Shown: positions 403 to 19,726 of the stretch, piece after piece
Layout of the letters: every line of letters starts with the position of its first letter
Position numbering within the stretch: position 1 is the stretch's first letter
Source: an uncultured Alphaproteobacteria bacterium
Lineage (GTDB): Bacteria > Pseudomonadota > Alphaproteobacteria > RF32 > CAG-239
Reading direction: 5' to 3'
NCBI GenBank assembly: GCA_934277435.1
Contig: CAKQUE010000001.1
Coordinates: forward strand, 65,652 to 129,651
Length of the DNA stretch: 64,000 bases
Translations under genes and position numbers: made by a program
The notes under the pieces: model-generated
What the model saw: the letters and a program-made list of their open reading frames with translations, nothing else
Told to the model about the DNA's origin: nothing
Database searches by the model: none

Positions 403-1056
403 TTAATAAGGCTGTAAGTCCACCCAAATATTGGCATAAGTATCTTCTTTTATTATTTGATTACACCTGTCAGCAATTTCCGCGAGAGAAATATTTTGGT
501 CTTTTGACTTATCATACAGATATACGGGAGATGTTCCATTTACATTAGTGGATTCCGAATCTTTCACCCACATAACAGCATTATTTACTTCAGAGTTTTT
601 CTTTGACACGGCAATAAGATTTTGGCAAAAATCCTTTCCCGACGGAGAAAAAGAAGACCCCGTTATAACCCTATAGGAAACAGCCATAACCATTCTAAAA
701 CTCTTGCCTCTGGTTCCATCTCCTTTGTCCAACGTCCATAAACCATAATGCAAACTGACATAAATTCCATCTTTAGTCGAAATTCTTTGATATTCATAAC
801 TTGTACCTTCCGGAATATCCCCCATTGCGTATAAAACCGGAGTAAGGTCATCCCAGGTTGTTGATTTTGAATCCAGATTAGGCTTTAATTTTATGGAAGC
901 CGCAATAATTTCTTCAAGCATCTGCCTTTGACTGTTGGAACGCCATTTCAACATCGCTTTTGAATATCCGGCAATTCCACCGACAGACAACACGGCAATT
1001 ATAGCAAGCACCCCCAGCATCTCTATCATTGAACGGCCATATTGATTATTTTTCAT
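403..1056 (-). CDS. Type IV pilin-like protein with a prepilin-type N-terminal cleavage/methylation domain (pilin paralog 1), 217 aa from ATG at 1056
   Basis: N-terminus MKNNQYG|RSMIEMLGVLAIIAVLSVGGIAGY has the class III signal (G at -1, E at +5, hydrophobic helix) typical of T4 pilins and pseudopilins. RBS AAGGGGAAG lies upstream of the ATG at 1056; the ORF-track start at 1122 is an upstream extension. Two Cys are present in the C-terminal half. Confidence 0.6.
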   Translation of the reverse strand: MKNNQYGRSMIEMLGVLAIIAVLSVGGIAGYSKAMLKWRSNSQRQMLEEIIAASIKLKPNLDSKSTTWDDLTPVLYAMGDIPEGTSYEYQRISTKDGIYVSLHYGLWTLDKGDGTRGKSFRMVMAVSYRVITGSSFSPSGKDFCQNLIAVSKKNSEVNNAVMWVKDSESTNVNGTSPVYLYDKSKDQNISLAEIADRCNQIIKEDTYANIWVDLQPY

Positions 1057-1260
1057 AACAACTTCCCCTTTTTTCAATTTAACAACAAAAAAACCGCCGA
1101 AAAAGCGGCCGGAAGTTGACAACTACTTTACACAAGATAGCGTAGCATATTAGCTAATAGCATATTTTGCTACCTTCCGGCCAGTTGAGCCAGAAGTTAT
1201 GCTAGTTTAGTGTCCGCTATTGCAGACATGTGTAAAAGAGGTTGTCACGCCCCAGACAGA
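1057..1260 (-). promoter_or_regulatory. Structured 5' leader of pilin paralog 1: long-range closing helix, internal hairpins, and a GC hairpin plus U7 tract (intrinsic-terminator-like) immediately before the RBS, with an alternative antiterminator pairing
   Basis: On the minus-strand RNA, CCGGCCGC-UUUUUCG-GCGG is followed by UUUUUUU and ends about 25 nt before the ATG. A 9-nt segment (plus 1174-1182) is perfectly complementary to the 5' half of this hairpin (plus 1107-1115). A closing helix pairs plus 1241-1246 with 1116-1122 and flanking bases. The homologous leader at 19727-19921 supports a functional element. Confidence 0.4.
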
Positions 1261-1508
1261 CTATCGCCTATCCATCTAAAAGATTAACGGCTACAACGTA
1301 AAAAGTAAAGAAGAAAATAGCATCTCTTGTTTTGTTATTGATTTTACATTTTTTCCATAATCTTCTTGCTTTTAGAGAATAAGTGTGATATACAGCACCT
1401 GAAATTAAGTTGGTTTTTATGTATGAGCGCTTGCGCCACCGTAGTAAAAACCTTGTATTTATCCGCTTTGCCCATCAAAGCTTTAGAGAAAATGAAAGGA
1501 ATTACATC

Positions 1509-1964
1509 ATGAGACATGGTGATGGACACAGAAAATTTAGTATGCCGAAAAGCCAAAGAAGAGCTTTGTTTTCTAATTTGACAAGTTCTTTGTTGGAACA
1601 CGAACAAATTACAATTACTTTGACAAGAGCCAAAGAATTGAGAACTTTTGCTGATAACATGATTACTTTTGCTAAAAAAGGTGATTTGAACAGCCGTCGT
1701 ATTGCTGCAGGTTTCTTGCGCAATAATGAAGTAGTTTCTAAACTGTTCTCTACTTTGGCAGAACGTTATAAAGAACGCAACGGCGGTTATACCCGCGTGT
1801 TGAAAGCTGGTTTCCGCTATGGCGACTGCGCTCCGATGGCTATCATTGAATTGGTTGACCGCGATGTAAACGCTAAAGGCGCTAAAGACTTGGCTCGCGT
1901 TGCTGCAGAAAAAGCTGCTGCTGCTGAAGCTGAAAAAGCTGAAAACGCTGCTTCTGCCGAATAA
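1509..1964 (+). CDS. rplQ: 50S ribosomal protein L17
   Basis: Strong similarity to L17 throughout ([24 protein letters not shown]...[24 protein letters not shown]). ATG at 1509 is preceded by AAAGGAA. The ORF-track start at 1410 is an artefactual N-terminal extension. The Ala/Glu-rich C-terminal tail is lineage-specific. Confidence 0.9.
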
Positions 1965-1982
1965 GATTCAGTAGATACAAAT

Positions 1983-2014
1983 TAAAAAACGGGGCAATTT
2001 GCTCCGTTTTTTGT
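1983..2014. terminator. Bidirectional rho-independent terminator between convergent rplQ and the histidine kinase gene
   Basis: AAAAAACGGGGCAATTTGCTCCGTTTTTTG: 7-bp stem with one wobble, A-tract on one side and T-tract on the other. Confidence 0.5.
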
Positions 2015-2028
2015 TGTCTTCACACCTA

Positions 2029-3687
2029 TTATTTTGCGATTATCGGTATTGATATAATAAATTCCGTTCCTTTACCGACTTTGCTTTTTACGCTAATGCG
2101 TCCATGCATTTTTTCGATTAAATCACTGACAATAGCCAACCCCAAACCAGAACTACGCACATTATCATTTGCCGAATAAAAAGGTTCAAAAATATGCTTG
2201 ATTTTTTCGGGTGTTATGCCAATTCCGGTATCTTTTATGCTAATTTTGATATTTTTGCGATTATTGCTTGTTGTTAAAATAAGCTCACCGCCATCGGGCA
2301 TCGCCTTGATAGCATTTTGCGCCAAATTTAGAATAATCATCTTAAAATCGGCTTCATTGCCATTAAAAGTTAAATTTTCCGTCAGCTGAGTTTTTATGGC
2401 AATGCCATGACGTTTAGCGTCATAATCAATCATCAGCAGCATATCGTTAATTGCGTCAGACACATCAATTTCTACATTTTCATTATCGGAATACTGGGCT
2501 AAGCGCAACAATCTTTCTGGAGTTTTTATGGTTTCAACCAGCTGATTATACGCCATTTGCAAATATTTTTTTTGGTCATCGGTATCTGGAACATTGGCAT
2601 AATAGTTGGAGAGAATCCCCTCAAAAATCATTCTGATTGCACCAAGATTGTTTTTCATCTCATGCGCAATAGAAGTTGAAAGAAAAGCCAAAGATGAAAC
2701 CTTTTGCTGATGTGAAAAACGTACATCGTTACTTAAATCGTGCAACGCCTCCACAATATAAATATCCTCTTCATTTTGCCCCCAACGCAACTTGGTTGCA
2801 TTCAAATACAAAGGAACTTTACCAACTTCATGAATAGTATGAAAATGCTCTGGTATATTGGCAGAATTGAGCAAAAGTTCCTTGACCGGACAAGCATATT
2901 GCCGCTGCGGACAGCCATCGCAATGAGTATTATACGCTTTGTAGCATTTTTGCCCAACGCAAGTTTTTTTTAGTTTCAGCATAGAGTGGAAAGCGCTGTT
3001 TGCCATAATAACATTATAATTTTTATCAATCACTCTTATCCCATCTGGAATGGCATCTATCAACCTTTGCAAAAAAATCTCTCGAGCCTTTGTTTCTTCA
3101 ATATTGTATTCCGTGTTATCCAGCATTTTGTTAAAAGTTGAGTACAAAATATCAAACTCATCTTGAAAACGTCCGCTTTCCACCATTATTCGGCTCGAAA
3201 ATATACCAAGCGAAACTTTGCGGCTGATTTCAATAAGCTTTTCAATTGGACGAATAACCCAGTAATCCAACATAAATATCAACAGAAAAATGAACAACAC
3301 CACAATAAAAAGGCTAACGCCTAAAATTTGCGCGCCGACAATAATTGCTTCTTTATTATTGTTATAATTTTTTTGCAGCTCTGCATTAAGACGCTGTTCT
3401 TTAGACAGTTCCTTTTGTGTTAAATCAATACCTTGCGACACTCTATTGCCACGATAGCGCAAAGAAATTTTTGGATTATTTTCATAAATTTCTGCCAATT
3501 GTTTTTGTAAAGAAATATTATCATACAGCAAATCAACCACATATTGGTTTCGCAAATACAAAGAATTTTGCCGATCTTGCAAGTTGCGTCCATAAAGGTT
3601 AATGAAAATGGCAAAGAACAGTCCGGTTATCAAAAAAAGGAAAACCAAAATACTGTATAATATCTTTTTATTAAGACTGATAAACAT
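2029..3687 (-). CDS. Membrane-bound PAS-domain sensor histidine kinase (orphan; no response regulator adjacent)
   Basis: N-terminal TM segments, a PAS-like region, an H-box (IAHEMKNNL), and HATPase_c motifs (DTGIGI...GLGL). A Cys cluster CDGCPQRQYACP sits in the sensor region. Confidence 0.8.
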   Translation of the reverse strand: MFISLNKKILYSILVFLFLITGLFFAIFINLYGRNLQDRQNSLYLRNQYVVDLLYDNISLQKQLAEIYENNPKISLRYRGNRVSQGIDLTQKELSKEQRLNAELQKNYNNNKEAIIVGAQILGVSLFIVVLFIFLLIFMLDYWVIRPIEKLIEISRKVSLGIFSSRIMVESGRFQDEFDILYSTFNKMLDNTEYNIEETKAREIFLQRLIDAIPDGIRVIDKNYNVIMANSAFHSMLKLKKTCVGQKCYKAYNTHCDGCPQRQYACPVKELLLNSANIPEHFHTIHEVGKVPLYLNATKLRWGQNEEDIYIVEALHDLSNDVRFSHQQKVSSLAFLSTSIAHEMKNNLGAIRMIFEGILSNYYANVPDTDDQKKYLQMAYNQLVETIKTPERLLRLAQYSDNENVEIDVSDAINDMLLMIDYDAKRHGIAIKTQLTENLTFNGNEADFKMIILNLAQNAIKAMPDGGELILTTSNNRKNIKISIKDTGIGITPEKIKHIFEPFYSANDNVRSSGLGLAIVSDLIEKMHGRISVKSKVGKGTEFIISIPIIAK

Positions 3688-3689
3688 TT

Positions 3690-4406
3690 TTAACCCATCT
3701 GATTAACAAAATCCGCTTCTGTTTGCAGCAATAAATACGGATTGCAAAGTTTTTCTAAACCAAGTGTATTTCCAACCGGAGGCTGGTTGTTTTGCCGGCA
3801 TTGTTCTAAAAACTGCAGATATTTTTTAATTTGCGGTTGATTTTGGTTGGCAATCAAATAACCGAACGCTGACTTTGTATATTCATGCCCCGGATAAAAA
3901 CGCACATCATTTGGCAAGCTCTTAACTTTTTGCAAACTTTGCCACATTTGCTGCGGCGTCCCCTCAAACAACCCACCAATGCATAAATTAAAAAGCACGT
4001 CGCCGGTAAAAATTGCTTTGTCTTTAGAAAAATACCACAGCAGATGTCCGTTAGTATGTCCTGACGCCAATATGGCCGCAGTTTCTGAATTTCCAAGTTT
4101 AAATAAATCACCGTCATTCAGCGCAATATCTAATCCGCTTATTAAATTTTCTTCAATTTTTGAACCTACGACTTTGGCGTTAAAGCGCTTCTTCAAAGCC
4201 AAATTAGCATTGGTATGATCTTCATGATGATGCGTTGTTAAAATATATGATGGTATAATATCCTGTTTTTGGCAAAATTCAACAATCGGCTTTTCTTCGG
4301 CGGCATCAACTATAGCACTGACTTTAGTTTCGCTGTCTATCAAAACATAAGCATAATTATCCATAAAACCGGCATTACACAAAATCGGATAAATTTCTAA
4401 ACTCAT
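3690..4406 (-). CDS. gloB: Hydroxyacylglutathione hydrolase (glyoxalase II), MBL fold
   Basis: THHHEDH metal-binding motif, length 238 aa, and typical GloB layout. Confidence 0.75.
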   Translation of the reverse strand: MSLEIYPILCNAGFMDNYAYVLIDSETKVSAIVDAAEEKPIVEFCQKQDIIPSYILTTHHHEDHTNANLALKKRFNAKVVGSKIEENLISGLDIALNDGDLFKLGNSETAAILASGHTNGHLLWYFSKDKAIFTGDVLFNLCIGGLFEGTPQQMWQSLQKVKSLPNDVRFYPGHEYTKSAFGYLIANQNQPQIKKYLQFLEQCRQNNQPPVGNTLGLEKLCNPYLLLQTEADFVNQMG

Positions 4407-5284
4407 TTTATATTCTCCAATTCCGGTTTATAATCCACATTTTGCATTTTATAATAAGAAAAAGTATAGTCAATCATACCGGCTATATTTTTAAGATTAC
4501 TGTCGGCAATCATTACGGCGGCAACTTGCGGACCATATAAAGGACGCTCTATTCTTCGAGCATCAGACCGCGAAGTCCATAGATATTTATAACTTATTCC
4601 GGTGTTCATTTTCAAAACTTGGTCGGCAATGCTTTCTTCAAGCGTTCCATACATTTTGTAGCGATAGTCAGCCTCGGCGTCGTCCAAAGGCTTTAACCCT
4701 TGGTTATTATACCAAATCTCACGCAAATATAGAGAATTAGCTTGCATAGCCAAGCGAGAAGTTCCCCAATTGCTATAAATTCCGGCGGTTGAAATTAGCA
4801 ATGACGCCGGAACCGCATCAACTTTTTCCAATAGCTGTTTAAGCAATAAGTCTGTACGCTTTTGGCCTTTTAAGCGAGTAAAAGCGTCATATTTTTCCGC
4901 CAATTTTTCTAACTTTTCCAATTCTGATTTTGTAAGATTGCTACTTTTTTGCTGAAATTCCAATATTTGCGCACGCTCACGCAAAACATCTTCGTTGACT
5001 TTTAGCACCAGAGGAATCATTATCCGAATAAAGGTACGATGTTTATCGTCGCTGTCGGCAACATCATTCCAATCTGTCGGCAAGCGTAAAAAATAAATGC
5101 GCGGAAATTTGCTTTTTATCTGAGAAAAATCGTCAAAGTCATACTGCTTAAAAAGTTCTTCCGCTTCTTTAGTCGTTGCCGATTTAACATATAAAGCGCC
5201 GCCTTTTTTCTCCGCAATCAGCCGAGCGTCTGCAGTAAACGCCGCACAGCAAAAACATAACAGAGTTAAAAAGCGTAAAAACAT
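4403..5284 (-). CDS. Secreted protein with a C-terminal glucosaminidase-like (Bax/FlgJ-type) domain
   Basis: N-terminal signal peptide (MFLRFLTLLCFCCAAFTADA). The C-terminal region LISTAGIYSNWGTSRLAMQANSLYL...DSNLKNIAGMIDYTF resembles mannosyl-glycoprotein endo-beta-N-acetylglucosaminidase domains. Confidence 0.45.
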   Translation of the reverse strand: MFLRFLTLLCFCCAAFTADARLIAEKKGGALYVKSATTKEAEELFKQYDFDDFSQIKSKFPRIYFLRLPTDWNDVADSDDKHRTFIRIMIPLVLKVNEDVLRERAQILEFQQKSSNLTKSELEKLEKLAEKYDAFTRLKGQKRTDLLLKQLLEKVDAVPASLLISTAGIYSNWGTSRLAMQANSLYLREIWYNNQGLKPLDDAEADYRYKMYGTLEESIADQVLKMNTGISYKYLWTSRSDARRIERPLYGPQVAAVMIADSNLKNIAGMIDYTFSYYKMQNVDYKPELENIK

Positions 5285-5285
5285 T

Positions 5286-5813
5286 TTATTCCTTTATCTT
5301 TATTTCTTTTAGGGTTGGAACATAGCGATTAAAACAGCTTGCTATCACATTGTTCAAAGTGTTTTGAGCATAGGGGCAGCCGACGCAATGGCCTGTGAAT
5401 TGCAGTTCCAAACAATTATTTACATAAGATATTATTTTTATATCTCCCTTATCTCGGTTCAGCGTTGGACGGATAAAAGAATCCGCCAAAGCTTCTAGCA
5501 ATTCTAAACCAGCAGGGACTTGAGTTGTTTGCAAAACCTGATATCCGCTATCGTTCAGATAATCATCAATTTCTGCCAAAACAAGAGCTTGCACATCTTC
5601 TTTAACAGCAGAATCCGTAAAGCGCACACCAATTAAAACATCGGTCAGTAAACACTGTTCCACTCCGTCTATAGCTAAAATATTGGCGACAATCTGAGGC
5701 TGTTCCATTTTTTGTGAGGTAAAAATTTCGGCCGAATTTGGCTTTACCAAGGGTTTGGGCAAATAAAAATTAATTAACTTTTTGGGTTGTAAATCTTCTA
5801 TTTTAATCAGCAT
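5286..5813 (-). CDS. NifU/Nfu-family Fe-S cluster scaffold protein
   Basis: C-terminal NifU-like domain with a CxxC motif (FTGHCVGCPYAQ) plus an Nfu N-terminal-like domain. Confidence 0.55.
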   Translation of the reverse strand: MLIKIEDLQPKKLINFYLPKPLVKPNSAEIFTSQKMEQPQIVANILAIDGVEQCLLTDVLIGVRFTDSAVKEDVQALVLAEIDDYLNDSGYQVLQTTQVPAGLELLEALADSFIRPTLNRDKGDIKIISYVNNCLELQFTGHCVGCPYAQNTLNNVIASCFNRYVPTLKEIKIKE

Positions 5814-6885
5814 GATTTTCCTGTAATTTGTTTTGAATATTCAATACGGCAACCAGAGCTCGCTCTAAATAATAATTTTGAACAATCAAATGATTTGCTC
5901 CAGTTAACCCGCCCAATTTGCCGTTACGGATATACAGCGGTTTAAATTCAGCTGTTTTCTGCAAAGAAGAAATCAGATAAGTCCATTCGGTATAAACATT
6001 GTTCCGCACAATCACAGCTTTAAAATCAACACCGGCTGCCAAAGCTATCTGCCAAGCGCCAAAAGCAAATCCACGGGCTTTATAAAACACATCATCAGAT
6101 TTTGTATCCAAAATTTGTGAAGAATGTTCTATAATCTGACTATCATTTTTTTGCACATAAAAACGCAAAGATTTTGCCAAATGACTTAAATAGGAATTAA
6201 ATTCTTGTTCTTCTAAAACCAACGGTTCATCATTAATTTTCAACAGTTCCCGACGTGCTTTGCGGTATTGAGCGTTAGAAGACGGCGCCAAACCAAACGT
6301 TCCTTTACGGGACATAATCCATATATTTGGCGGATACCGCAGCAATTCATCAGCTTTTTTTATACGTTCTGTTTGCGCCGGAGTCAGCCGTCTAAAGTTT
6401 TTGACGGTTGTCGATGCTCCACGCACGGCCGACATAATGCCTATTTGAAAATTGGGCATATTATCCAAAATGTAGGCCGGAAAAACAAACGGCAAATTCG
6501 GAGTCCACATTTTGGCGTCGATTTCACGGTTGATTAAAAACGCCATAGCATTAAGCGTTTCGGACTTTTCACTTTTTTCTTTTGGCAGCTGATATACTTG
6601 GCGGATACTCATATTTTCTACCAACAAACTGCCGATTATATAGTAAAAAAACAAAAAACAGAACAAGCAGCTTAAAACAAGTTTCCACGAATCCGAAAGC
6701 TTGCGGCTGATTTTTTTAGCATAGCGGAAAACTTTTTTGAATTTGAATGCTTTTATTTTTTTTAGCATATTTCTGGAATATTCTGCCACCTTTGATAGTA
6801 CATCGCCAAATTTCAGCTGTTTAACCCAAACCTGAAAATTTTTGATTTTTTCTTTTAGTAAAGCGATGATTTTAGCTTTGTCCAT
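5803..6885 (-). CDS. Membrane-anchored hypothetical protein (possibly DUF2333-like)
   Basis: 360-aa ORF with consistent codon usage, one N-terminal TM segment (LVLSCLFCFLFFYYIIGSLLV), and short overlaps with neighbouring genes on the same strand. Confidence 0.4.
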   Translation of the reverse strand: MDKAKIIALLKEKIKNFQVWVKQLKFGDVLSKVAEYSRNMLKKIKAFKFKKVFRYAKKISRKLSDSWKLVLSCLFCFLFFYYIIGSLLVENMSIRQVYQLPKEKSEKSETLNAMAFLINREIDAKMWTPNLPFVFPAYILDNMPNFQIGIMSAVRGASTTVKNFRRLTPAQTERIKKADELLRYPPNIWIMSRKGTFGLAPSSNAQYRKARRELLKINDEPLVLEEQEFNSYLSHLAKSLRFYVQKNDSQIIEHSSQILDTKSDDVFYKARGFAFGAWQIALAAGVDFKAVIVRNNVYTEWTYLISSLQKTAEFKPLYIRNGKLGGLTGANHLIVQNYYLERALVAVLNIQNKLQENHAD

Positions 6886-8456
6886 TATTTTTTCCTCCGG
6901 ATAAGGCGAAGAATCTCATAAATATCTATCACTCTGAATATTCTAGCCAAGATAAAGAAAAATGCAAGCGCAAAGATACCCAAACCGCATAAGCTCAAAA
7001 ACAGAAGCCACTTAGAACCATATATCCAATTTGGATACAAAACCGACAATTCGCAGCGGCAAGCATAAATAGCAGCTCCGGTTAGCAAGGAAACCGCAAT
7101 AATGCGGCATATTTTACCCAAAAGCGGACGCGAAAATTGCCAATATCCACGTTTTTTTAGCCCAATCACATACTGCAGCAAAGAAACAAAAGCGGCAATA
7201 GTGGTGGCGCAGGCAATTCCAACGTGCCCATAGTCACGCATCAACAGCAATATAAACGCCAAGTTTGTAAAAAACACTACAGCGCTATATTTTACCGGCG
7301 TAACCGTATCACCACGGGCAAAAAAGTTTGGCATCAGCGCTTTAGTCAGCACATAACAAGGCAGACCAATCGAATAAGCAATGACCGCGTACGCTGTTTT
7401 TACAGCATCGGCCGGCAAAAATTTACCATGCTGGAACAAAAGACGAACAATAGGTTCTGCCAAAACAATCAGCAAAACCGCAGCCGGCAGCGACAACAGA
7501 AAACCGTATTCAACCGCCTTATCCTGAGTGTTTCTTGCCTCATCTATTTGATTTTCTTTTAGATATTTAGAAAGAATCGGCAACAAAGCCACACTGATTG
7601 CGGCCCCGATAACGCCTAGAGGCAGCTGCTGTAAACGGTTTGCATAATAGAGCCAAGAAATAGCTCCGGTGCCGACAAGCGAAACCAAAATCGTATCTAC
7701 CGCCATATTAATTTGATAGATACCAGCGCCAACCACCCCAGGAGCAATACGCTTGAACAAAGTTTTAATTTCGGGATTACGCAGAATCTTCACAATGTGC
7801 AAATACGGATTTATTTTTATATCTATACGGTGCAGAAAATAGCGCAGCCAAAAGACTTCGAGCAAACCGGCAGTGGTTATGCCAAGAGCAAAACCATGGG
7901 CAGGAGTTGGAGTAAACGGCACAAATAAAAACACCGAAAAAATCATCATCATATTCAAAATAATCGGCGCGGTAGCCGGAGCGGCAAATTTTTCAAACGA
8001 ATTTAAGATTCCACCCTGAAAAGAAACTAATGAAATCAAAAGCAAAAACGGAAAAGTTATGCGGCAAAGCTGGGTAGCCAAAACTAATTTTTCGGGCTCG
8101 CTGCGAAACCCGGGAGCTAAAACATCGACCACATAAGGCATAAAAATTTCAAACATTAAAACAAAAAAGCCAACAAACAACACTAAAACCGAAATTGCCT
8201 GCGCGGCAAAAAATACGGAGCGTTTTTTGCCATCTGACACCAGTTTTTGAGAAAACAATGGCACAAACGCGCTGGTGAAAGCCCCTTCGGCAAATAGGCT
8301 ACGGAACAAATTTGGCAGTTTGAACGCCACAACAAAAGCATCGGAAATTGCTCCGGCGCCTAAAAAATTTGCTAAAACCATATCACGCAGAAAACCGGTT
8401 ATTCTGCTGACCAAAGTTAACCCGCCAAAAGTGGCGACTGATTTAAATAATGACAT
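6885..8456 (-). CDS. murJ: Lipid II flippase MurJ (MviN)
   Basis: 523 aa, polytopic, with the conserved MurJ N-terminus (LTLVSRITGFLRDMVLANFLGAG..SDAFVVAFKLPNLFR). Confidence 0.85.
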   Translation of the reverse strand: MSLFKSVATFGGLTLVSRITGFLRDMVLANFLGAGAISDAFVVAFKLPNLFRSLFAEGAFTSAFVPLFSQKLVSDGKKRSVFFAAQAISVLVLFVGFFVLMFEIFMPYVVDVLAPGFRSEPEKLVLATQLCRITFPFLLLISLVSFQGGILNSFEKFAAPATAPIILNMMMIFSVFLFVPFTPTPAHGFALGITTAGLLEVFWLRYFLHRIDIKINPYLHIVKILRNPEIKTLFKRIAPGVVGAGIYQINMAVDTILVSLVGTGAISWLYYANRLQQLPLGVIGAAISVALLPILSKYLKENQIDEARNTQDKAVEYGFLLSLPAAVLLIVLAEPIVRLLFQHGKFLPADAVKTAYAVIAYSIGLPCYVLTKALMPNFFARGDTVTPVKYSAVVFFTNLAFILLLMRDYGHVGIACATTIAAFVSLLQYVIGLKKRGYWQFSRPLLGKICRIIAVSLLTGAAIYACRCELSVLYPNWIYGSKWLLFLSLCGLGIFALAFFFILARIFRVIDIYEILRLIRRKK

Positions 8457-8857
8457 TATTTTACCTTATTTTTTTATCTTTATTACAAAATAGCGTCTTT
8501 AAGTCAGATTGTATAATAAAAAAAATTATTGATAACAACTAAATATCAATATGAGTTGCCGCTGGCAACAAACATTAACCATTGCCATCAGCATTAGCAC
8601 TCATCATAACAATTTGATTATGCAGAACTTTTTATTCTAGAAGAGGGTAAGAATAACGACCGTTATTTTTACCCATTTAAACAGAGAATTTTGAATGTTA
8701 CAGAAATATGAAGAAAATGCTGAAAACTTAAATAGTTATTGCATATTGGCGAAAAATCGGATACCCTATTTATAGTAGTTTTTTGTGTATAAAAATAACG
8801 ACCGTTTTTTAGGACATAAAAAGCTAAGAAGAAAATATTTTTTAAGGAGGCTTTACG

Positions 8858-11510: not shown

Positions 11511-12446
11511 CTATAAATCACATTGTCCGCTGATTTCATGGTCTAAACGCTTTTCGTGCAAACCATACGGGTCTTGGTGGACAATTATCTGCGCCTGAGG
11601 AAATTCCGCCAAAATCTTGGCTTCAACCTTGTCTGAAATATCATGGCTCTCTGACAAGGTTAAATTTCCATCCAGCTCCAGATGTATTTCAATAAACATC
11701 CGCAAGCCGGATACACGGGTGCGAAAATCGTGATAGCCTTTTATCTCTGGCACTTCATACACCAGCGCAATGATTTTGCTTTTTATATCGTCATCAACCT
11801 CGTGGTCGGTAATTTCTTCTAGGGCTTTTATAGCAATATGCGCGGCATTCCACAATAAATAACCAGAAATAAAAACCGCGGTCAGACTATCAAACCACTG
11901 CCACCCCAAATATTTGACCACCAAAAGAGAAACAATAATCGCACCATTGGTCAGTAAATCAACCGTGTAATGCGCGCTATCGGCTTCAATCGCTTGCGAA
12001 TTGGTCTTTTTTACCACCGCCGCTTGAAAAGAAATGAGCGCAACCGTCAACACAATGCTAATCCCCATAATCCACAAACCAGCCGTTGTTTGTTTGATTG
12101 GCGTCGGATTAATAAAACGATTTATACCGTCATATAAAATGAATCCACCAGAACCGGCAATAAACGCCGCCTGAATCAAGGCACTGAGAGATTCCGCCTT
12201 GCCATAACCATAACGATGCTGTTTGGTCAGTGGCTTATTAGAAAATCTAACCGCCATCCAAGAAATACTTGACGACAACACATCGGTCAAACTGTCTATC
12301 ATTGACGACAAAACAGAAAGTGAACCGGTGGCAATAGCGGCGGCTCCTTTTATCAGGCTTAATGTGACCGAAACGCCAATGCTGGCGCTAGCCGCCAAGG
12401 TTTTTAGTTTATTTATTTTTTTTATGTTCAAATCAGAGCTGCTCAA
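11511..12446 (-). CDS. Cation diffusion facilitator family divalent metal efflux transporter
   Basis: Six-TM N-terminal domain plus a C-terminal cytoplasmic domain; typical CDF signature region around SLTDVLSSSISWMAVRFSNKP. Confidence 0.75.
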   Translation of the reverse strand: MSSSDLNIKKINKLKTLAASASIGVSVTLSLIKGAAAIATGSLSVLSSMIDSLTDVLSSSISWMAVRFSNKPLTKQHRYGYGKAESLSALIQAAFIAGSGGFILYDGINRFINPTPIKQTTAGLWIMGISIVLTVALISFQAAVVKKTNSQAIEADSAHYTVDLLTNGAIIVSLLVVKYLGWQWFDSLTAVFISGYLLWNAAHIAIKALEEITDHEVDDDIKSKIIALVYEVPEIKGYHDFRTRVSGLRMFIEIHLELDGNLTLSESHDISDKVEAKILAEFPQAQIIVHQDPYGLHEKRLDHEISGQCDL

Positions 12447-15400
12447 GAATTTTCTCCAAATGCTGCATGTCTATTTCCAATGGTTTGCCGCTAAAATATT
12501 TTGCCGCAAGCTTAATGTGCGAACCGGTATTATTTTCATCAAAATTCAGCACTGCATAAGCTTTGCCGTTTTCTTTATATAATGACAAAATCGCGTGGTC
12601 ACCGTTTTCAATATATAATTTTTTGGTTTTAATCGGTTTAGATTGTAAACTATCTTTAGATACTTTGATTGGTGTGTTCAAGGCATTTTTCATCAAAATC
12701 ACCAATTTTTCTTGCTCCGGAACATAATTGCTTGGTGAATACAAGCGGCCGTAACGCAAATCCCATAGTTTGCTATATGTCCATTTGGACTCATCTAAAT
12801 CCATATCCACAAAATCGCCGCTGATTTCCCAAACTTGAAACTGATTTTCAAATTTTATATACGCCGCGCGAGAACCTCGCCCCAAATCTATATTTATATC
12901 GCCCAAATCAAAACGCTGTATAACGTTTTCATCTTGTTTAAATTCAACTTCTATGGCCTTGGAATCCTTATCCTCAAGCGGCAGCAGATTAAACATACCC
13001 AGATTTTGCGCCTTATTGGTTTTGCGCTCAAAAAATCTGGCCTCGGCAACAGTGGTCAACAAACGGCGTATTCGTTCTTGATAAACCGGCATATCTTTTT
13101 GCCCTTCCAAAACCCAAAGCCCGTCTTTTTTCACAAAATCCAACTCGGCAGAATTTGATTTTAAACAAATATTATTGATATTGTTCAAATTATTTTCTAC
13201 CGCCGGAAAAGCAAGTTTGCCCTCATAAGCATCTACGCTGCTGCGGTTGGCAAAATAAACCGAAAGCAGAGCCACTGCAAAAATAAACAGACAAATTCCA
13301 GAAAGCTTTTGCAATCGCTTATCCAGCTTAAACATTTTTTCTGAAGCAGGTCTAGAATCATTCAGCCAGTGTTTAGCCTTTACGCCCAACAAAACCACCG
13401 CCAACAAAAATGGTATCAGCAACAAATTAAACAAACTAATTCTGGTATCTATTCTTTTGATATCTTCAAAAGCCTGTTCGCGGATATCGCTCAACTGCTG
13501 GCGTAAATCATTCAGCTGATTTCTAACTTTGGAAATTGCTGCCAATTCATCGGCCGTAAAGTTTTCGCGCTCTTCAAAATCTTTTTTGTTCCAGACTTCC
13601 TGCATGGCAGCCTTAGCTCTATCCATCTCAGCAAAAATAGCATTTTCCTGCTGCGTAAATTTCAAAGAATTTAGGCGGCGCATGGTTTCAATACCTTTAA
13701 ACGGGTGGTCTTGCGCCGTTTTGCCTCGCAATTCCAAAAGGGCTGTGTCGCCGGTCAAATAATCTAGCGCGTTCAAAACAAAATTAGCGTTATCAAAATT
13801 ATCAATAATGTATTCATTTTCTAAAAATGACCTTTTTGTTCCCCAAAATGTGTCATAAATAAAATCGGTGTCCGCAATCGCGATAATATCAAATTTATTG
13901 TTCGGCTCCTGTCCGATAATTTCCGCCGCCAAAATTTTTGGATTGTTATCCGGCTCAAAATTTTGCAAAATATCTTGCGGGTGCAAGCCGTCTATAACTA
14001 CCGACACCGGCATAATTTCTGAAATCGGACTGGCTTTTAACAATGGTTCAAACCTAATTTTGCCAGCTTTCAAATCTTCTAGTTTTGGCATAATCACCGA
14101 ACTTGAAGCCATCAAAATTTCGTTTAGATTTTTGGTTACAGGGTGTTTGTAGTTGATATCATCTGACTTGATGCGAAACTGAATTATGTCCTGTGAAAAA
14201 GTCGGATTGGTTTTGTAGTTAGCCGTCGCATCAACCGTGATGGAGTTTTGCAAATCGGCAACAACATAGTCTTTATAAAATTTAATATGCCAAAAATCTT
14301 CCAGTTCTCCCAAATCTGAACCTTCTAAGCGGTGGTTTTCCATTGAATACAAGCGAGAAGCTTCATTTGCCGGATCTAAAAACAGCATAATTTTGCCGCC
14401 TTTGCGCGAATAATCCTTTATGGCCTGCACAAATTCCGGTTTATATGGTTTGGGGTAGAAAAGCACCAAAACATCAAAATTATAGTTAAAATCTTCGGGA
14501 CGGACAATATTAATAATTTCATAATTTTCTCGCCATAAATCGACAATTTTCCACGGCTGTCCCAAAAATGTTCCGTCGGCGCTGTTAGTGCCAAACAACG
14601 GAAGTCCGGTCAAAACACCGATTGTTTTCTTTTTATGGTGTAAATCTCGGATTTTGGAAATTAAATCTTGTTCAAGCTTGCCTTGTCGCTCTTGTGCAAA
14701 AAACGGAATAACCTGTTTATTTTGCAAAGTATCTTCCAAAGTCAAACCAAACAAAGCGTTTTGATTTAAATCAATCAAAGGAATCGGCTGTAAACCGTTG
14801 GCCAAAGCAATGTCTTCTTCTTCACTCAAAAATTTTGGGTGATAAATCTTGAAATCAAAATTGCCGTTAGAAACATCTTTGCACTTTTTCAACAGCAAAC
14901 GCACATTGTCAAAAATTGTCCGCAATGAAGAATTGCGCTGTTCCAAAACCGGAGAAAAATACAGCTTGGCTAAAACCGGCTCCGGTAAATTCTGCAATAT
15001 CTGCTTAGAACTTTCTGTTAAAGTAAATATTTTCTTTTCGGTAGCGTCATATTGAATGTTACGGGTTAAGCCGTTTGCCAAAATATTAACGCCCAAAAAG
15101 GCAAACAACAACATGCTCCACGCAAAAATATAGTAGCCGCGGTTATTAGACTTCAACCAACCGGAAGTACCGGCAGTTTTAAAGTTGACAATCAAAATGG
15201 TAGTAAAGTTAAAAAAGAAAATTATAGTCGCAAAAAAGATAATATCCCGCAACTCAACCAACCCCAAACTAAGCGTGTCAAAATGGCTTAAAAAGCTGAA
15301 CGAGGCTATAACATCAATAATCGAATCCGGCAAAAACAGGCGGAAAAAGGACAATATATATTCAATTCCGCTCCAAAAAAACAGCAAATTGGCAATCACC

Positions 15401-15900
15401 GCCAACACTAGCGCTATGACCTGATTCTTGGTTAAAGCCGACATGGTTTCGGAAATAGCCAGCATACAGCCGGCAAGAACAAAACTAGCCAGATATCCCA
15501 ACGCAATTACACTGTTATCCGGCTCTCCTAAAATATTAACCGTTATCCAAAACGGAAACGTTAAAAACAAGGCCAAACCACAAAATAGCCAAGCGGCAAA
15601 AAACTTACCGCAAACCAAGGAGCGAATCGAAACCGGCATAGTCACCAACTGGACAATCGTTTTGTTACGAAATTCTTCCGCCCATAAACGCATAGAAATT
15701 CCGGGGATAAACAAAAGATACAACCATGGCTGAAAAGCAAACATTGACTGTAAATCCGCTTGTCCGCGGTTAAAAAAACCACCAAAATATAGTGCAAATG
15801 AAGAATTTAGCAGCAAAAAGCTCAGCAAATACACATAAGCCAGCGGAGAAACAAAATATCGAAACAACTCATTTTTACAAACAATCCAAAGTTTTTTCAT
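12433..15900 (-). CDS. Fused ABC-2 type permease (GldF-like) / GldG-like auxiliary domain / DUF4340-like C-terminal domain, 1155 aa
   Basis: The N-terminal ~250 aa are a polytopic ABC-2 permease. The middle region carries a periplasmic GldG-like domain followed by a TM anchor. The gene is immediately downstream of its ABC ATPase gene, with a 12-nt gap. Confidence 0.65.
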   Translation of the reverse strand: MKKLWIVCKNELFRYFVSPLAYVYLLSFLLLNSSFALYFGGFFNRGQADLQSMFAFQPWLYLLFIPGISMRLWAEEFRNKTIVQLVTMPVSIRSLVCGKFFAAWLFCGLALFLTFPFWITVNILGEPDNSVIALGYLASFVLAGCMLAISETMSALTKNQVIALVLAVIANLLFFWSGIEYILSFFRLFLPDSIIDVIASFSFLSHFDTLSLGLVELRDIIFFATIIFFFNFTTILIVNFKTAGTSGWLKSNNRGYYIFAWSMLLFAFLGVNILANGLTRNIQYDATEKKIFTLTESSKQILQNLPEPVLAKLYFSPVLEQRNSSLRTIFDNVRLLLKKCKDVSNGNFDFKIYHPKFLSEEEDIALANGLQPIPLIDLNQNALFGLTLEDTLQNKQVIPFFAQERQGKLEQDLISKIRDLHHKKKTIGVLTGLPLFGTNSADGTFLGQPWKIVDLWRENYEIINIVRPEDFNYNFDVLVLFYPKPYKPEFVQAIKDYSRKGGKIMLFLDPANEASRLYSMENHRLEGSDLGELEDFWHIKFYKDYVVADLQNSITVDATANYKTNPTFSQDIIQFRIKSDDINYKHPVTKNLNEILMASSSVIMPKLEDLKAGKIRFEPLLKASPISEIMPVSVVIDGLHPQDILQNFEPDNNPKILAAEIIGQEPNNKFDIIAIADTDFIYDTFWGTKRSFLENEYIIDNFDNANFVLNALDYLTGDTALLELRGKTAQDHPFKGIETMRRLNSLKFTQQENAIFAEMDRAKAAMQEVWNKKDFEERENFTADELAAISKVRNQLNDLRQQLSDIREQAFEDIKRIDTRISLFNLLLIPFLLAVVLLGVKAKHWLNDSRPASEKMFKLDKRLQKLSGICLFIFAVALLSVYFANRSSVDAYEGKLAFPAVENNLNNINNICLKSNSAELDFVKKDGLWVLEGQKDMPVYQERIRRLLTTVAEARFFERKTNKAQNLGMFNLLPLEDKDSKAIEVEFKQDENVIQRFDLGDINIDLGRGSRAAYIKFENQFQVWEISGDFVDMDLDESKWTYSKLWDLRYGRLYSPSNYVPEQEKLVILMKNALNTPIKVSKDSLQSKPIKTKKLYIENGDHAILSLYKENGKAYAVLNFDENNTGSHIKLAAKYFSGKPLEIDMQHLEKILEQL

Positions 15901-15912
15901 TTTTACTTCTCC

Positions 15913-16635
15913 TTAATGCGCGGTTAATTTACGAAACGCGTCGGCTAAATTATCCGTTCCGGCTTTTTGCAAAATATCAGTCAGAGTGCCGTCAGCTTTA
16001 ATTTTACCTTTATCCAGCAAAATAATACGGTTACAGATGGTTTCGGCCTCTTCCAGCAAATGGGTAGAGATAATAATTGTTTTATCCTTAGCCATGCTGA
16101 CAATTAACTTACGAATATAATCCTTTTGATTTGGATCCAAACCGTCTGTCGGTTCGTCTAAAAGCAACAACGGCGGGTTATTCAAAATACTTTGCGCAAA
16201 ACCTACTCGCCGCTGATAGCCTTTGGAAAGAGTTTCTATTTTTTGGTTAATGATTTCTTTGATATTGGCAATTTCTATAACTTCATTAACGCGTTTTGTG
16301 TCAACACCTCGCAGCTCTGCCATATAGTGTAAAAACATTTTTACGCTGATATCCGGATAAAGCGGCGAACCTTCTGGCAAAAAGCCTATATTTTCTTTGG
16401 CAAACAGCGGATTTTCTATAATATTTTTGCCCATAACCTCAATATTGCCGGAAGTTGGAGCTAAATAGCCGGCAATCATATTCATTAAAGTTGATTTACC
16501 GGCGCCGTTTGGCCCCAAAAGAGCGATAATTTCACCGCATTTGGTGCTAAATGACAAATCATCTGAAGCCTTTATAATTCCATACATTTTGCAAAGATGA
16601 GATATTTTTAGAGTTGTATTTTTATTTTTCAACAT
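15913..16635 (-). CDS. ABC transporter ATP-binding protein (GldA-like partner of the downstream permease)
   Basis: Walker A GPNGAGKST, signature LSKGYQRR, Walker B LLLLDEPT. Confidence 0.85.
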   Translation of the reverse strand: MLKNKNTTLKISHLCKMYGIIKASDDLSFSTKCGEIIALLGPNGAGKSTLMNMIAGYLAPTSGNIEVMGKNIIENPLFAKENIGFLPEGSPLYPDISVKMFLHYMAELRGVDTKRVNEVIEIANIKEIINQKIETLSKGYQRRVGFAQSILNNPPLLLLDEPTDGLDPNQKDYIRKLIVSMAKDKTIIISTHLLEEAETICNRIILLDKGKIKADGTLTDILQKAGTDNLADAFRKLTAH

Positions 16636-17722
16636 AAACTTCTCCTCCGGTCATAGGCTCATAAGCACCTGTTGTTGCGGGATAGGTTATCGGCAAAGCA
16701 TAGAGCCGGCGCGCCGTGTTAAACGCCGTAGAAACCGCGCCGATTTGATTTAGTTCCGAATTTAAATCTGTTATCAAATTCAAGGCTTGATTTTTGAACA
16801 CATGTTTCAAAAAACGCATCAGCGATGGATTTTTTGTTCCCTCGCCTGCCACATATATTTCCATTGGCTGCTGCGGCAAAAAATCCTGCGCCGCCTGATA
16901 TATTGCCTGCGCAATAAAAGCAGTGGCAGTGGCTGTTCCATCTTCTAATGATAAACCTTCAAGATGTTCTTTTTTATCGCTAAAACAGAGGATATCCAAA
17001 GATTTTGGCGGCTGTTTACGCAAAAATTTATGGTGCAGTAAGCTTTCAACAATCTGTGTGTGTATTTTGCCGGTAATTGCCAAACGGCCGTTATAATCGG
17101 TTTGCATATTAGCATGACGGAAAGTCCAATCTTCTATCATCGCCAGCCCCGGGGCACAATCAAACGCCAATAATTCTCCTGACACCCCTAAATAAACTAA
17201 ACTGCTGACTGTTTCTAGGTCTATAAACAAAGCCGGTCGCTCTATATTTTGCCCAATGGCGTTAAAAAACGCCGGTGTCAAAGGAGATGCCTGTCCGCCC
17301 GAAAGCAAATCCGCCTTATGGAAGTGCGTAACCACGCGCCGTCCTAGCTTGCGGCTCAATTCATGTCCTTGTTCAAGCTGATAAGAACATTTATCGGCAG
17401 GATCATTGCAAATTGTCAAACTGTCAACGCCTATTTCATCAAATTCCTCTGCCGAACAAAAATCATTTACAGCTTCAAGATAAAAATCTGTCATCTCTTG
17501 CTGCAGCTGTTGAATCTGTTTATTTTCTTGCAAAAAAGACAAATCGCAAATTCGCCTGCCAATAACAGAACGAATCTCCATGGCCAACGGTTCTGGATAA
17601 GGAACAACCGCCGTTTTTATTATTTCATTAATATCTATGCCGTCGGTTTTAACCAAAGCTAATTCAATCGAGTTGAGCGAAGCTCCGCCAAAAGCACCTA
17701 AAACAGTCATATTTTTTATCAT
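16622..17722 (-). CDS. anmK: Anhydro-N-acetylmuramic acid kinase
   Basis: 366 aa; N-terminal GAFGGASLNSIELALV and overall AnmK-like layout; sits in a murein-recycling context. Confidence 0.75.
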   Translation of the reverse strand: MIKNMTVLGAFGGASLNSIELALVKTDGIDINEIIKTAVVPYPEPLAMEIRSVIGRRICDLSFLQENKQIQQLQQEMTDFYLEAVNDFCSAEEFDEIGVDSLTICNDPADKCSYQLEQGHELSRKLGRRVVTHFHKADLLSGGQASPLTPAFFNAIGQNIERPALFIDLETVSSLVYLGVSGELLAFDCAPGLAMIEDWTFRHANMQTDYNGRLAITGKIHTQIVESLLHHKFLRKQPPKSLDILCFSDKKEHLEGLSLEDGTATATAFIAQAIYQAAQDFLPQQPMEIYVAGEGTKNPSLMRFLKHVFKNQALNLITDLNSELNQIGAVSTAFNTARRLYALPITYPATTGAYEPMTGGEVYVEK

Positions 17723-17800
17723 CTGTATTCATCTCTTTTGTTGCAATGCTAAAATAATATGTTAATATGCGTTAAAATTTAGTATAAAGGACAAAAAACG

Positions 17801-19051
17801 ATGAATAAGTTTAAATCAGAATTTTTAAATATTATGCACGAACGCGGTTTTTATAACCAATGCACCAATGAAGAGGGGTTTGACGCTTATCTTTATGAAT
17901 GTGAAAGCAAAGGTAAACCAGCAGTCGGCTATTTAGGTTCTGATCCGACCGGCGACAGCCTGCACGTTGGGCATATTGTGCCATTGATGATGATGCGCTG
18001 GTTTCAAAAATGCGGACACAAGCCTTTGACTTTGGTCGGCGGCGCTACTGCTCGTATCGGCGATCCGTCCGGAAAGGACAAACTCCGCCCGTTTTTAGAT
18101 GAAGCAACCTTGGCGCACAATATTGAAGGACTGAAAAAATCTTTCCGCAAATTTTTGAAATTCGGCGATGGTGAAAATGACGCCGTAATGGTTGATAACT
18201 GGGATTGGTTTAAAGATATAAATTATCTGGCTTTTTTGCGAGATATCGGCACCTGCTATTCGGTTAACCGTATGTTGACAATGGATAGTGTGAAAAGCCG
18301 TTTGGAACGCGAACAACCAATGTCTTTTTTGGAATTTAACTATATGCTGCTGCAAGGTTACGATTTTTGCCAATTGCTGCAAAAATATAACTGCCGCGCG
18401 CAAATCGCCGGCGCCGACCAATGGGGCAACATAACCTCCGGCACAGAACTTGGACGCCGCCGCTATGATACCGAATTGTTTGGCTTTACCAGCCCGATTT
18501 TGACAGACTCATCAGGCAAAAAAATGGGCAAATCCGAAGGCAACGCGGTTTGGATTAATGATGAAAAGTTGCCGGCGTACGATTATTATCAATATTTCCG
18601 CAACATTGGCGACGCTGAAGTCGGCAAATGTTTGCGCGTGTTCACAGACCTGCCGATGGACGAAGTCTGCCGTTTGGAACAATTGAAAGACAAAGAAATT
18701 AACGAAGCCAAAAAAATTCTGGCATTTGAAGCTACCAAAATTTGCCGCGGCTTAGACGAAGCCCAAAAAGCGCAAGAAACTGCGGTTAAAGCTTTTGAGC
18801 AAGGCGTGGCCGGCGGAGAATTACCAACTCTTAACGCTGATTTGAACAGCGGTATCGGAGTTTTGGACGCCTTTTTGCAAATAGGTTTTGTGGCCAGCAA
18901 AGGCGAAGCCCGCCGCCTGATTAAACAATCCGGCTTAAAGATTAACGACAAACCAGTAACTGATGAAAATTATGTCATTACTTCTGCCGACATTGTTGAC
19001 GGAGCTGTCAAAATCTCTCAAGGCAAAAAGAAGTTTGGCTTAATTAAATAA
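17801..19051 (+). CDS. tyrS: Tyrosine--tRNA ligase
   Basis: HIGH-type motif (LHVGHIVP), KMSKS-type motif (KMGKS), C-terminal S4-like domain; 416 aa. Confidence 0.9.
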   Translation: MNKFKSEFLNIMHERGFYNQCTNEEGFDAYLYECESKGKPAVGYLGSDPTGDSLHVGHIVPLMMMRWFQKCGHKPLTLVGGATARIGDPSGKDKLRPFLDEATLAHNIEGLKKSFRKFLKFGDGENDAVMVDNWDWFKDINYLAFLRDIGTCYSVNRMLTMDSVKSRLEREQPMSFLEFNYMLLQGYDFCQLLQKYNCRAQIAGADQWGNITSGTELGRRRYDTELFGFTSPILTDSSGKKMGKSEGNAVWINDEKLPAYDYYQYFRNIGDAEVGKCLRVFTDLPMDEVCRLEQLKDKEINEAKKILAFEATKICRGLDEAQKAQETAVKAFEQGVAGGELPTLNADLNSGIGVLDAFLQIGFVASKGEARRLIKQSGLKINDKPVTDENYVITSADIVDGAVKISQGKKKFGLIK

Positions 19052-19069
19052 TTTGTTACAAATGAAACT

Positions 19070-19102
19070 CCACACCGTTCTGAAGAGAACGGTGTTTTGT
19101 TA
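19070..19102. terminator. Bidirectional terminator between tyrS (+) and pilin paralog 2 (-)
   Basis: ACACCGTTCT-GAAG-AGAACGGTGT followed by TTTGTT, with an A-rich 5' flank. Confidence 0.5.
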
Positions 19103-19108
19103 TAAATA

Positions 19109-19726
19109 TTAGAAGTTCAAAATCAACGAACAATAGCGCAAATCTTCATCATCTATACATGATTTGCATATTTGATTTATTTCTGTAAGTTTCAAATCAC
19201 GTAAACACTCGGTATTTTCATCACCGCAATATGCATTGCCATAATAATAACTTGAGGGAAATTGCCAACGATAAAAACGAACCATGTATAAAACATCGCT
19301 TAGCGGCTGAGCAAAATCTCGAAGCATTGCTTCACAAAATTTGCCTGCGGCTTTGCCATTGCCTTTTCCTTGAATTATTTCCAGTTGAAAATGCCCCGAA
19401 CGAGTGAATATTCCAACTTGATTTCCCCAAGTATCCCTTAAATCTTGAACACTAACTCTAGACCATGTTTCCGGAACTAAATTCATAGCCTTAACCGTTT
19501 CAACTAAGGGATACTGCGTTCCCTCTTTATTTATATTGTTAAATTCATCTATATGTTCAACTAAACCCGCCACAAACATCGAATATTCGCCGACAGTCTT
19601 ATTTATCCGCCACATTTCCATAGCTTTTGAATATCCCGCAATACCACCGACAGACAACACTCCAATAATAGCAAGTACCCCAAGCATTTCTATCATTGAT
19701 CGACCTTGTTGATTTTTAATTTTCAT
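19109..19726 (-). CDS. Type IV pilin-like protein with a prepilin-type N-terminal cleavage/methylation domain (pilin paralog 2), 205 aa from ATG at 19726
   Basis: N-terminus MKIKNQQG|RSMIEMLGVLAIIGVLSVGGIAGYSKAM is nearly identical to paralog 1 over the class III signal; the C-terminal domain is diverged and Cys-rich. RBS AAGGAG upstream of the ATG at 19726. Confidence 0.6.
   Translation of the reverse strand: MKIKNQQGRSMIEMLGVLAIIGVLSVGGIAGYSKAMEMWRINKTVGEYSMFVAGLVEHIDEFNNINKEGTQYPLVETVKAMNLVPETWSRVSVQDLRDTWGNQVGIFTRSGHFQLEIIQGKGNGKAAGKFCEAMLRDFAQPLSDVLYMVRFYRWQFPSSYYYGNAYCGDENTECLRDLKLTEINQICKSCIDDEDLRYCSLILNF

Follow-up and report, generated by a model that had tools for sequence, protein, structure and literature searches.

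Dispersed type IVb-like pilin genes behind covarying RNA leaders in an uncultured gut alphaproteobacterium

What are two solitary pilin-like genes doing in a stretch of chromosome that carries no pilus machinery? The question is raised by a 64,000-nt window (the whole stretch analysed here: contig CAKQUE010000001.1 of assembly GCA_934277435.1, positions 65,652 to 129,651 of the forward strand) from an uncultured Alphaproteobacteria bacterium of the RF32 lineage. A sequence-only reading had noticed two open reading frames (ORFs) with pilin-like N-termini, here called genes A and B, and had given their coordinates, lengths and cysteine counts correctly, leaving out only the strand:

403-1056, minus strand: gene A, a type IVb-like prepilin of 217 aa with a 7-residue leader (MKNNQYG), a mature start RSMIEML and two cysteines.
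19109-19726, minus strand: gene B, a type IVb-like prepilin of 205 aa with the leader MKIKNQQG and six cysteines.

Our answer, to which we attach a probability of roughly 0.55, is that A and B are alternative subunits of a type IVb pilus, each under a switch of its own. Below we set out the proteins, their family, the RNA leaders that precede their genes and the pilus operon found in relatives, and then weigh this reading against its alternatives.

To begin with the proteins, both carry the features of a class III signal: a short basic leader, Gly-1, Glu+5 and about 20 hydrophobic residues. In gene A the leader MKNNQYG is followed by RSMIEMLGVLAIIAVLSVGGIAGYSKAM (RSMIEMLGVLAIIAVLSVGGIAG after Gly-1), and in gene B MKIKNQQG is followed by RSMIEMLGVLAIIGVLSVGGIAGYSKAM, again opening with RSMIEML. 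The common signal and helix read as the cleavage-site glycine, RSMIEMLGVLAII, Ala or Gly, and VLSVGGIAGYSKAM, with 28 of 29 residues identical, which bears out the near-identity first noticed. The globular domains have diverged, as had also been said: BLASTP aligns A and B at 36% identity over 148 aa (E 7e-21), and the likeness fades past about residue 90. The 29 common N-terminal codons differ by nine synonymous changes and one non-synonymous change, indicating that the N-terminal identity is maintained by selection at the protein level and ruling out recent gene conversion as its source. A six-frame motif scan found no third copy of the signal in the window. Among homologues (56 for A, 58 for B), Gly-1, Glu+5 and the hydrophobic helix are invariant, as are both cysteines of A (C144 and C198) and four of the six in B. 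A DsbA-like gene lies elsewhere in the window (30330-31073) and fits disulfide-bonded periplasmic proteins.

We then looked at the likely fold. AlphaFold2 models built on the homologue alignments reached a mean pLDDT of 84 (A) and 83 (B); past residue 40, in the globular domains, most values exceed 90. Both predict a 47-residue N-terminal helix on an alpha/beta domain. The long helix packs on an antiparallel beta-sheet, as in type IV pilins. The best matching folds in the PDB are the type IVb pilins TcpA, CofA, PilS, TcpB and CofB, with TcpA, CofA and PilS the top three chains for both models; the structure prediction that the sequence-only reading had proposed for the C-terminal domains thus leads to type IVb pilins as the closest solved folds. 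In agreement with this, 210 (A) and 197 (B) residues follow Gly-1 and position +1 is Arg, in line with the mature size (about 180-200 aa) and the non-Phe +1 residue of type IVb pilins. The length that had seemed unusual is so beside type IVa pilins and is ordinary beside type IVb pilins, which normally have about 200 aa; together with the non-Phe +1 residue it is a type IVb trait, which accounts for the surprise. The leaders of 7-8 residues do not reach the long leaders (about 13-30 aa) of type IVb pilins. We conclude that A and B are homologous to type IVb pilins: in the N-terminal part by sequence, and in the rest of the protein as far as the predicted fold tells.

Taken together, the class III signal, the predicted fold and relatives inside a pilus operon (see below) all agree with a pilin-like identity. 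The more specific suggestions made earlier (minor pilin, pseudopilin or competence pilin) are not the best fit: fold, size and the non-Phe +1 residue favour type IVb. They are not type II secretion (T2SS) pseudopilins: the GspG model TIGR01710 gives 12.5 bits where 88.85 is required, and the window is free of gsp genes. Nor are they competence pilins, whose ComG models match neither A nor B. The PRK10506 and PRK10574 models match at the N-terminus only. With TIGR02532, a model of the N-terminal methylation/cleavage domain, B scores 16.6 against a threshold of 16.3, barely above it, and A scores 11.2; profile support for this domain is marginal. Searching the globular domains against solved structures by family profiles gave nothing except a weak N-terminal match to a Geobacter pilin. 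The closest models by fold, TcpA of Vibrio cholerae and CofA of CFA/III from enterotoxigenic Escherichia coli, share 10-13% identity with A and B; unlike them, A and B have Arg+1, leaders of 7-8 residues, no pilus operon, dozens of paralogs and an RNA leader. TcpA and CofA leaders are about 25-30 residues long. As A and B fail both the Bundlin/PilS profile tests and the test of operon location, we file them outside the named families and treat them as a new variant of the type IVb-like pilins that has expanded strongly.

How expanded is the family? It has thousands of members in gut metagenomes, from uncultured gut Alphaproteobacteria. Word-indexed searches returned at least 7,940 and at least 6,718 matches, and a complete HMMER search of 1.84 billion 50%-identity representatives returned 5,682 at E<=1e-3, 4,060 at 1e-10 and 494 at 1e-30. 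Contigs from one genome per species gave at least 596 family matches. The 79 genome loci that we fetched (about 1.3 Mb) hold 134 family genes with a uniform mature length (mean 207 aa) and six cysteines as the mode, and one similarity cluster, to which A and B belong, takes in 126 of the 134 copies. Individual related metagenome-assembled genomes (MAGs) contain at least 33 distinct paralogs (CAKQRZ01), and at least 23, 18 and 16 in three others. The idea that A and B are paralogs therefore holds as to homology, while "two" is far too few. Family genes are very often the first or last gene of a contig, so the common 5' sequence probably breaks assemblies; this suggests that the MAG copy numbers underestimate family size. 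At 90% identity or more, the two pilins have clusters of 59 and 94 members from many samples. Viral contigs, scanned by pattern, yielded 0 matches, and gene B had no tblastn match in 72,556 plasmids. We also observed that family genes often lie beside tRNA genes (L007:1395-1468, L013:10714-10801, L029:3626-3709, L035:2610-2697, L048:14294-14366).

The relatives also show a peculiarity upstream of the cleavage site. In 71 of 112 paralogs more than 30 codons are open before Gly-1, and in 56 of 112 more than 60, at a genome G+C of about 39%. Such long frames (60-200 codons) occur at L041:9851-10007, L020:7670-8503, L015:9695-10645 and many other loci, not in the window. The long extensions begin at a conserved MFKGIEFFKGKSRG with a strong Shine-Dalgarno (SD) sequence and are made of recurring in-frame modules, for example LLRRxTPRND and NLVNKFALLL, that match palindromic DNA repeats. 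One paralog reads MYNNFEKGRS, 35 aa, then GRSMIEML, with GRS doubled in the manner of a target site. Insertions of this kind would be tolerated in a leader peptide removed by cleavage, and the extensions thus indirectly support cleavage. They also make for erratic N-termini in public gene calls of the family.

Next we consider the DNA upstream of each gene. The sequence-only reading had described both genes as bounded by terminators. The upstream hairpins do resemble intrinsic terminators, on the pilin genes' own strand about 32-36 nt before the start codons; they prove to be the 3' end of a leader RNA belonging to each gene and do not terminate a neighbour. The region 5' of the hairpin is kept before paralogs in other MAGs and falls into two sequence classes, with A in class 1 and B in class 2. 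The elements before gene A are:

1061-1068, minus strand: Shine-Dalgarno region, GGGGAAGU.
1078-1290, minus strand: leader, about 200 nt.
1084-1110, minus strand: intrinsic-terminator-like hairpin GGCCGCUUUUUCGGCGG (1110-1092) and U-run.
1107-1183, minus strand: three-way junction of P1, P2 and P3, class 1, predicted by RNAalifold (covariance model R1, 110.5 bits).
1172-1197, minus strand: predicted hairpin H4 (-15.3 kcal/mol, z -4.1), whose 3' arm is the P1 5' strand.
1211-1273, minus strand: hairpins H1 (1273-1254), H2 (1253-1238) and H3 (1228-1211), which recur in 19 class-1 leaders; RNAalifold predicts H2, and inspection of the alignment by eye gave H1 and H3.

Those before gene B are:

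19743-19945, minus strand: leader, about 200 nt.
19749-19775, minus strand: intrinsic-terminator-like hairpin GCCCGCCUAAAAGCGGGU (19775-19758) and U-run.
19775-19851, minus strand: predicted three-way junction, class 2 (50.9 bits, E 2e-7, with R1 built on class 1 only).
19837-19863, minus strand: predicted hairpin H4, GCCGAUUUCCG / CGGAUGUCGGC (-16.0 kcal/mol, z -3.7), competing with P1 and P2.
19877-19943, minus strand: hairpins H1 (19943-19930), H2 (19926-19910) and H3 (19897-19877).
19953-19981, minus strand: promoter-like TTTACA-17-TAACAT just upstream of the leader, a consensus match only.

RNAalifold predicts the three-way junction with the terminator immediately after it, and in class 1 there are compensatory changes at 13 of 24 pairs. 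The covariance model R1, made from class 1 only, detects class 2 leaders with scores of 48-62 bits, apart from one that reaches 35.6; the leaders themselves, at about 200-215 nt, extend beyond its span. R1 has exactly two matches in the window and 46 in 1.3 Mb; of these 46, 43 precede the Gly-1 codon of a family gene by 35-508 nt in the same orientation. In an alignment of 44 sequences to the model, 96.8% of cells are paired and 19 of the 24 pairs show changes in both partners, counts that are to be read with the caveat that the alignment is fitted to the model and that the split into two classes supplies many of them. None of 500 shuffles did as well, and slid controls paired at 26-43%.

Hairpin H4 is what makes the leader look like a switch. 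Its 3' arm is the P1 5' strand plus the first bases of P2. It is predicted in all 39 leaders compared (10-16 bp, -11 to -22 kcal/mol, mean z -4.7), covaries within class 1 and is retained in class 2 despite a wholly different sequence. Since H4 and P1 draw on one strand they cannot coexist, which is the signature of a switch. A possible output is found at the ribosome-binding site: within the SD region of gene A, GGAAGUUG is the exact complement of the P1 3' strand, CAACUUCC, and the predicted duplex has -12.0 kcal/mol against -4.2 +/- 1.9 for shuffles. Across class 1 the leaders' own duplexes give -10.4 kcal/mol, compared with -4.2 +/- 1.9 when shuffled and -7.0 when paired across classes.

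Is this a known RNA? Neither in the window nor at 8 related loci does any Rfam family attain its gathering score, and a known riboswitch was rejected on this ground. The leaders do resemble sRNA-Xcc1 over the full model length (27.9 bits for A and 31.4 for B, gathering score 53; E-values 0.007 and 0.001 in 381-nt searches, 3.7e-4 for B in a 141-nt search); with scores below the gathering score, this is resemblance and not membership. The family, RF02221, comprises an integron-borne Xanthomonas small RNA upstream of symE (bioRxiv 10.1101/2025.06.18.660453) that is multicopy in Xylella (PMC12189769). Like it, the window leaders are multicopy, lie directly upstream of a small gene and align to all 87 positions (P1, two inner hairpins and the 3' tail). 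They differ in adding about 100 nt of conserved 5' structure including H4, and in their hosts and downstream genes.

A structured leader before a pilin gene has a parallel elsewhere. In Clostridioides difficile, a c-di-GMP-II riboswitch precedes pilA1, again a type IV pilin gene under a structured leader ending in a terminator; unlike there, no c-di-GMP riboswitch reaches the Rfam threshold before A or B. No description of the A/B family or of its leader was found in the searchable literature, and a search on RF32, gut Alphaproteobacteria and pilins found nothing relevant.

If A and B are pilus subunits, where is the pilus? The sequence-only reading had noted that neither gene lies in a pil or gsp operon, and this is confirmed: Pfam searches of 50 large ORFs found no pilB/C/D/M-Q, gsp, tad or secretin gene in the 64 kb, and phmmer with E. 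coli Gsp/Hof proteins and with type IVb operon proteins found no pilus machinery in the window. A link came from one paralog, whose neighbour has precomputed Pfam matches to both Bundlin and PilS and also has the GRSMIEML N-terminus. This PilS/Bundlin-like subfamily makes up 6 of the 134 copies, 4 of which pass both profiles (PilS up to 63 bits, gathering score 22). Thus the profiles of BfpA (PF05307) and of R64 and Salmonella Typhi PilS (PF08805) are passed by paralogs with an identical N-terminus and not by A or B, and by hhalign the likeness of A and B to this subfamily ends at about residue 80.

We scanned metagenome contigs with the subfamily and took 79 loci. Part or all of a type IVb operon is present at 15 of them, and the full set, on a single strand, at 12-13. 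Its order is a 314-aa protein, a TcpQ-like protein, a secretin, PAP_PilO, a 512-aa coiled-coil protein, a 554-aa T2SSE ATPase, a T2SSF platform protein, a pilin-like protein without a cleavage site, one to three PilS/Bundlin pilins starting with the cleavage-site glycine and RSMVEMLGVLAIIGVLSVGGIAGYSKAM, and a 320-aa T2SSE ATPase. One example is:

L150:342-11833: complete type IVb operon from a sister clade, human gut, with the same Arg+1 pilin signal.

Further complete operons are at L131-L133, L140, L147, L151, L155, L156, L162, L164, L171 and L172. The set resembles R64 pil and tcp in its TcpQ, secretin, PAP_PilO, T2SSE and T2SSF components and differs in that no peptidase is seen. As the operon pilins carry the same N-terminus as A and B, the Arg+1 signal belongs to a genuine type IVb system in this group. 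The RNA leader is absent from these operon-encoded pilins; it is present at dispersed copies, including a PilS-like one (L094 lineage).

The window and the 79 genome loci of related MAGs were searched by tblastn and phmmer with E. coli GspC-O, HofB/C and PpdD. The sole match was one 317-aa T2SSE ATPase. NCBIfam puts it closest to PilT/PilU, ComGA, GspE and PilB (113-90 bits) and well away from VirB11 (44 bits), and its contexts in related MAGs contain no platform protein and no peptidase. An orthologue of the small ATPase is about 80-94% identical among MAGs related to the holder of L025, where it is found apart from any operon. For the peptidase we scanned the window, the roughly 1.3 Mb of genome loci and about 1 Mb of metagenome loci with the A24 motif G.GD[VI]K and with GspO by phmmer, and found none; the motif scan matched PlsY only. 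A further gene start occurs in the window's own species: a 321-aa T2SSE-family gene begins at L180:14225-14417, about 9.4 kb left of window base 1 and downstream of a peptidase M29 gene, with an N-terminus only about 45% identical to the other small ATPases.

From what is observed (signal motif, predicted fold, family size, a covarying RNA and its association with the genes, and the operon in relatives) we infer the following course of events. A prepilin peptidase would cut A and B after Gly-1, leaving Arg+1, and the invariant N-terminal helix, as in the major pilins of the sister-clade operon, would feed them to a type IVb machine encoded elsewhere. The diverged globular domains could give the fibre different surfaces for adhesion or antigenicity, and the earlier suggestion of variable adhesins is plausible. 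Each pilin gene would be its own transcription unit behind a structured leader of about 200 nt. With H4 formed, the 3' strand of P1 would mask the SD, which the junction state would leave free; the terminator may add attenuation. The default would then be short terminated transcripts, blocked translation or both, until a signal flips the switch, so that only some paralogs would be expressed at once.

Several results weigh against this reading. Regarding the proteins, Pfam N_methyl gives 17.1 and 18.7 bits, below its threshold of 21.2 for both, neither protein matches Bundlin (PF05307) or PilS (PF08805) at E<=1, and we know of no report of Arg at +1 of a processed pilin. Regarding location, type IVb pilins are operon-encoded and A and B are solitary among housekeeping genes. 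No A24 peptidase, long T2SSE, T2SSF or secretin was found in the window or in the roughly 1.3 Mb around the 134 genes; the operon was seen in the sister clade only, where the small ATPase is 56-61% identical, and no A24 peptidase lies within +/-10 kb of it. Regarding the leader, the anti-SD pairing of class 2 is weak (-7.2 kcal/mol, cross-class -5.6), and a simple terminator/antiterminator model fails because P1 and the terminator stem are adjacent without overlap, so that termination is not obviously under the control of the switch.

On a different explanation, A and B are class III signal proteins that use a pilin N-terminus for membrane insertion or export only and form a repertoire of unpolymerised periplasmic or surface binding modules. 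Comparable proteins are the Sulfolobus bindosome proteins and the dispersed prepilin-like proteins of Planctomycetes and Verrucomicrobia. Dozens of dispersed copies unlinked to machinery, the lack of biogenesis genes near any of the 134 copies in related MAGs and globular domains without a sequence match to solved pilins all fit it. Having weighed these points, we regard it as unlikely.

We give still less credence to the proposal that A and B are minor pilins, low-abundance initiator or tip subunits of a fibre whose major subunit is a PilS/Bundlin-like paralog. In its favour, the distinct PilS/Bundlin-like subfamily is the one in the operon, and the N-terminal helix is common to all copies. 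However, the known type IVb minor pilins TcpB and CofB are much larger, multi-domain and operon-encoded, we know of no precedent for more than 30 minor pilins per genome, and the PilS-like paralog of the L094 lineage is itself dispersed behind the same leader. Finally, that A and B are decaying remnants of a lost pilus system, or functionless translated repeats, is highly improbable: the machinery was not found in the window's lineage and many paralogs have repeat insertions in the leader-coding region, but the ORFs are intact, with close relatives (59 and 94) in many samples, conserved synteny, invariant cysteines, nine synonymous changes to one non-synonymous in the helix codons and leader RNA pairs retained through compensatory changes.

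Returning to alternative, individually switched pilus subunits, the arrangement has its closest analogues in the Neisseria pilE/pilS cassettes and the R64 PilV shufflon, which are pilin variation systems and likewise join a constant N-terminal module to many alternative C-terminal domains. In the A/B family, by contrast, every variant has a full gene, a leader and a start codon to itself. No recombinase or shufflon is seen beside A and B, and the synonymous divergence opposes recent recombination between them. A fuller version, which we put forward tentatively and hold to be doubtful, is that the leader forms a new class of RNA switch, sensing a ligand or a protein, that gates more than 30 pilin variants singly. 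The result would be a programmable or stochastic one-of-many fibre repertoire, with antigenic or adhesin variation by RNA switching and without DNA recombination, a non-canonical Arg+1 signal and leader peptides that tolerate in-frame repeat insertions, being cleaved off.

Type IVb pili are best known for their part in colonisation by enteric pathogens (TCP, BFP, CFA/III) and as the thin pili of plasmids of the R64 type. Here, type IVb-like pilins occur in a lineage of uncultured commensals that is common in human and animal guts, with dozens of genes per small genome, each dispersed gene behind a conserved RNA with two predicted, mutually exclusive folds. If our reading is true, a way for a gut commensal to vary an adhesive or antigenic fibre becomes testable, as does the acceptance of Arg at +1 by a prepilin peptidase. 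The leader would represent a new class of structured RNA, probably with several thousand instances, and may explain the poorly understood role of sRNA-Xcc1. For annotation it matters that the N-terminal extensions in public gene calls of the family are often very long or look spurious, and that family genes are points where assemblies break.

The rest of the window reads as an ordinary alphaproteobacterial chromosome (38.8% G+C) with genes such as rplQ, murJ, tyrS, addAB, F0 ATP synthase genes, acrAB-tolC-like genes, tgt and dnaE. Exact-match protein records of its products are labelled "MAG: ... [Alphaproteobacteria bacterium]" and come from human, ruminant and other gut samples; human samples with this organism include ones from the Hadza and from Nepal. 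Each pilin gene stands alone, as first described, and has housekeeping genes on both sides: A between a convergent periplasmic-binding-protein (Peripla_BP) gene and divergent rplQ, B between trxA and convergent tyrS, an arrangement repeated in six independent contigs. Downstream terminators could not be confirmed, as the scan found none after A, and B has only a hairpin shared with tyrS:

19072-19095, no strand assigned: palindromic hairpin between convergent tyrS and B, with a T-run on the plus strand only.

We made three further observations. In most bacteria rplQ follows rpoA; here rplQ (L17; 1410-1964, plus strand) is alone and divergent from gene A, not behind rpoA, and the same holds in L180. 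A VirD4/TraG-type coupling protein (55766-57988, plus strand) is preceded by four ORFs of 348, 667, 163 and 493 aa in the region 50613-57988 (plus strand); neither Pfam nor NCBIfam matches any of the three largest, and a Pfam-only search left the 163-aa ORF unmatched. The region may represent a type IV secretion or conjugation module, either novel or a remnant. Lastly, a 1155-aa protein (12433-15900, minus strand) combines four parts, namely an ABC-2 membrane domain, DUF7088, ABC_transp_aux (GldG-like) and DUF4340, and its gene adjoins that of an ABC ATPase (15913-16635, minus strand); such a system is usually split over several genes, and a single polypeptide is unusual.

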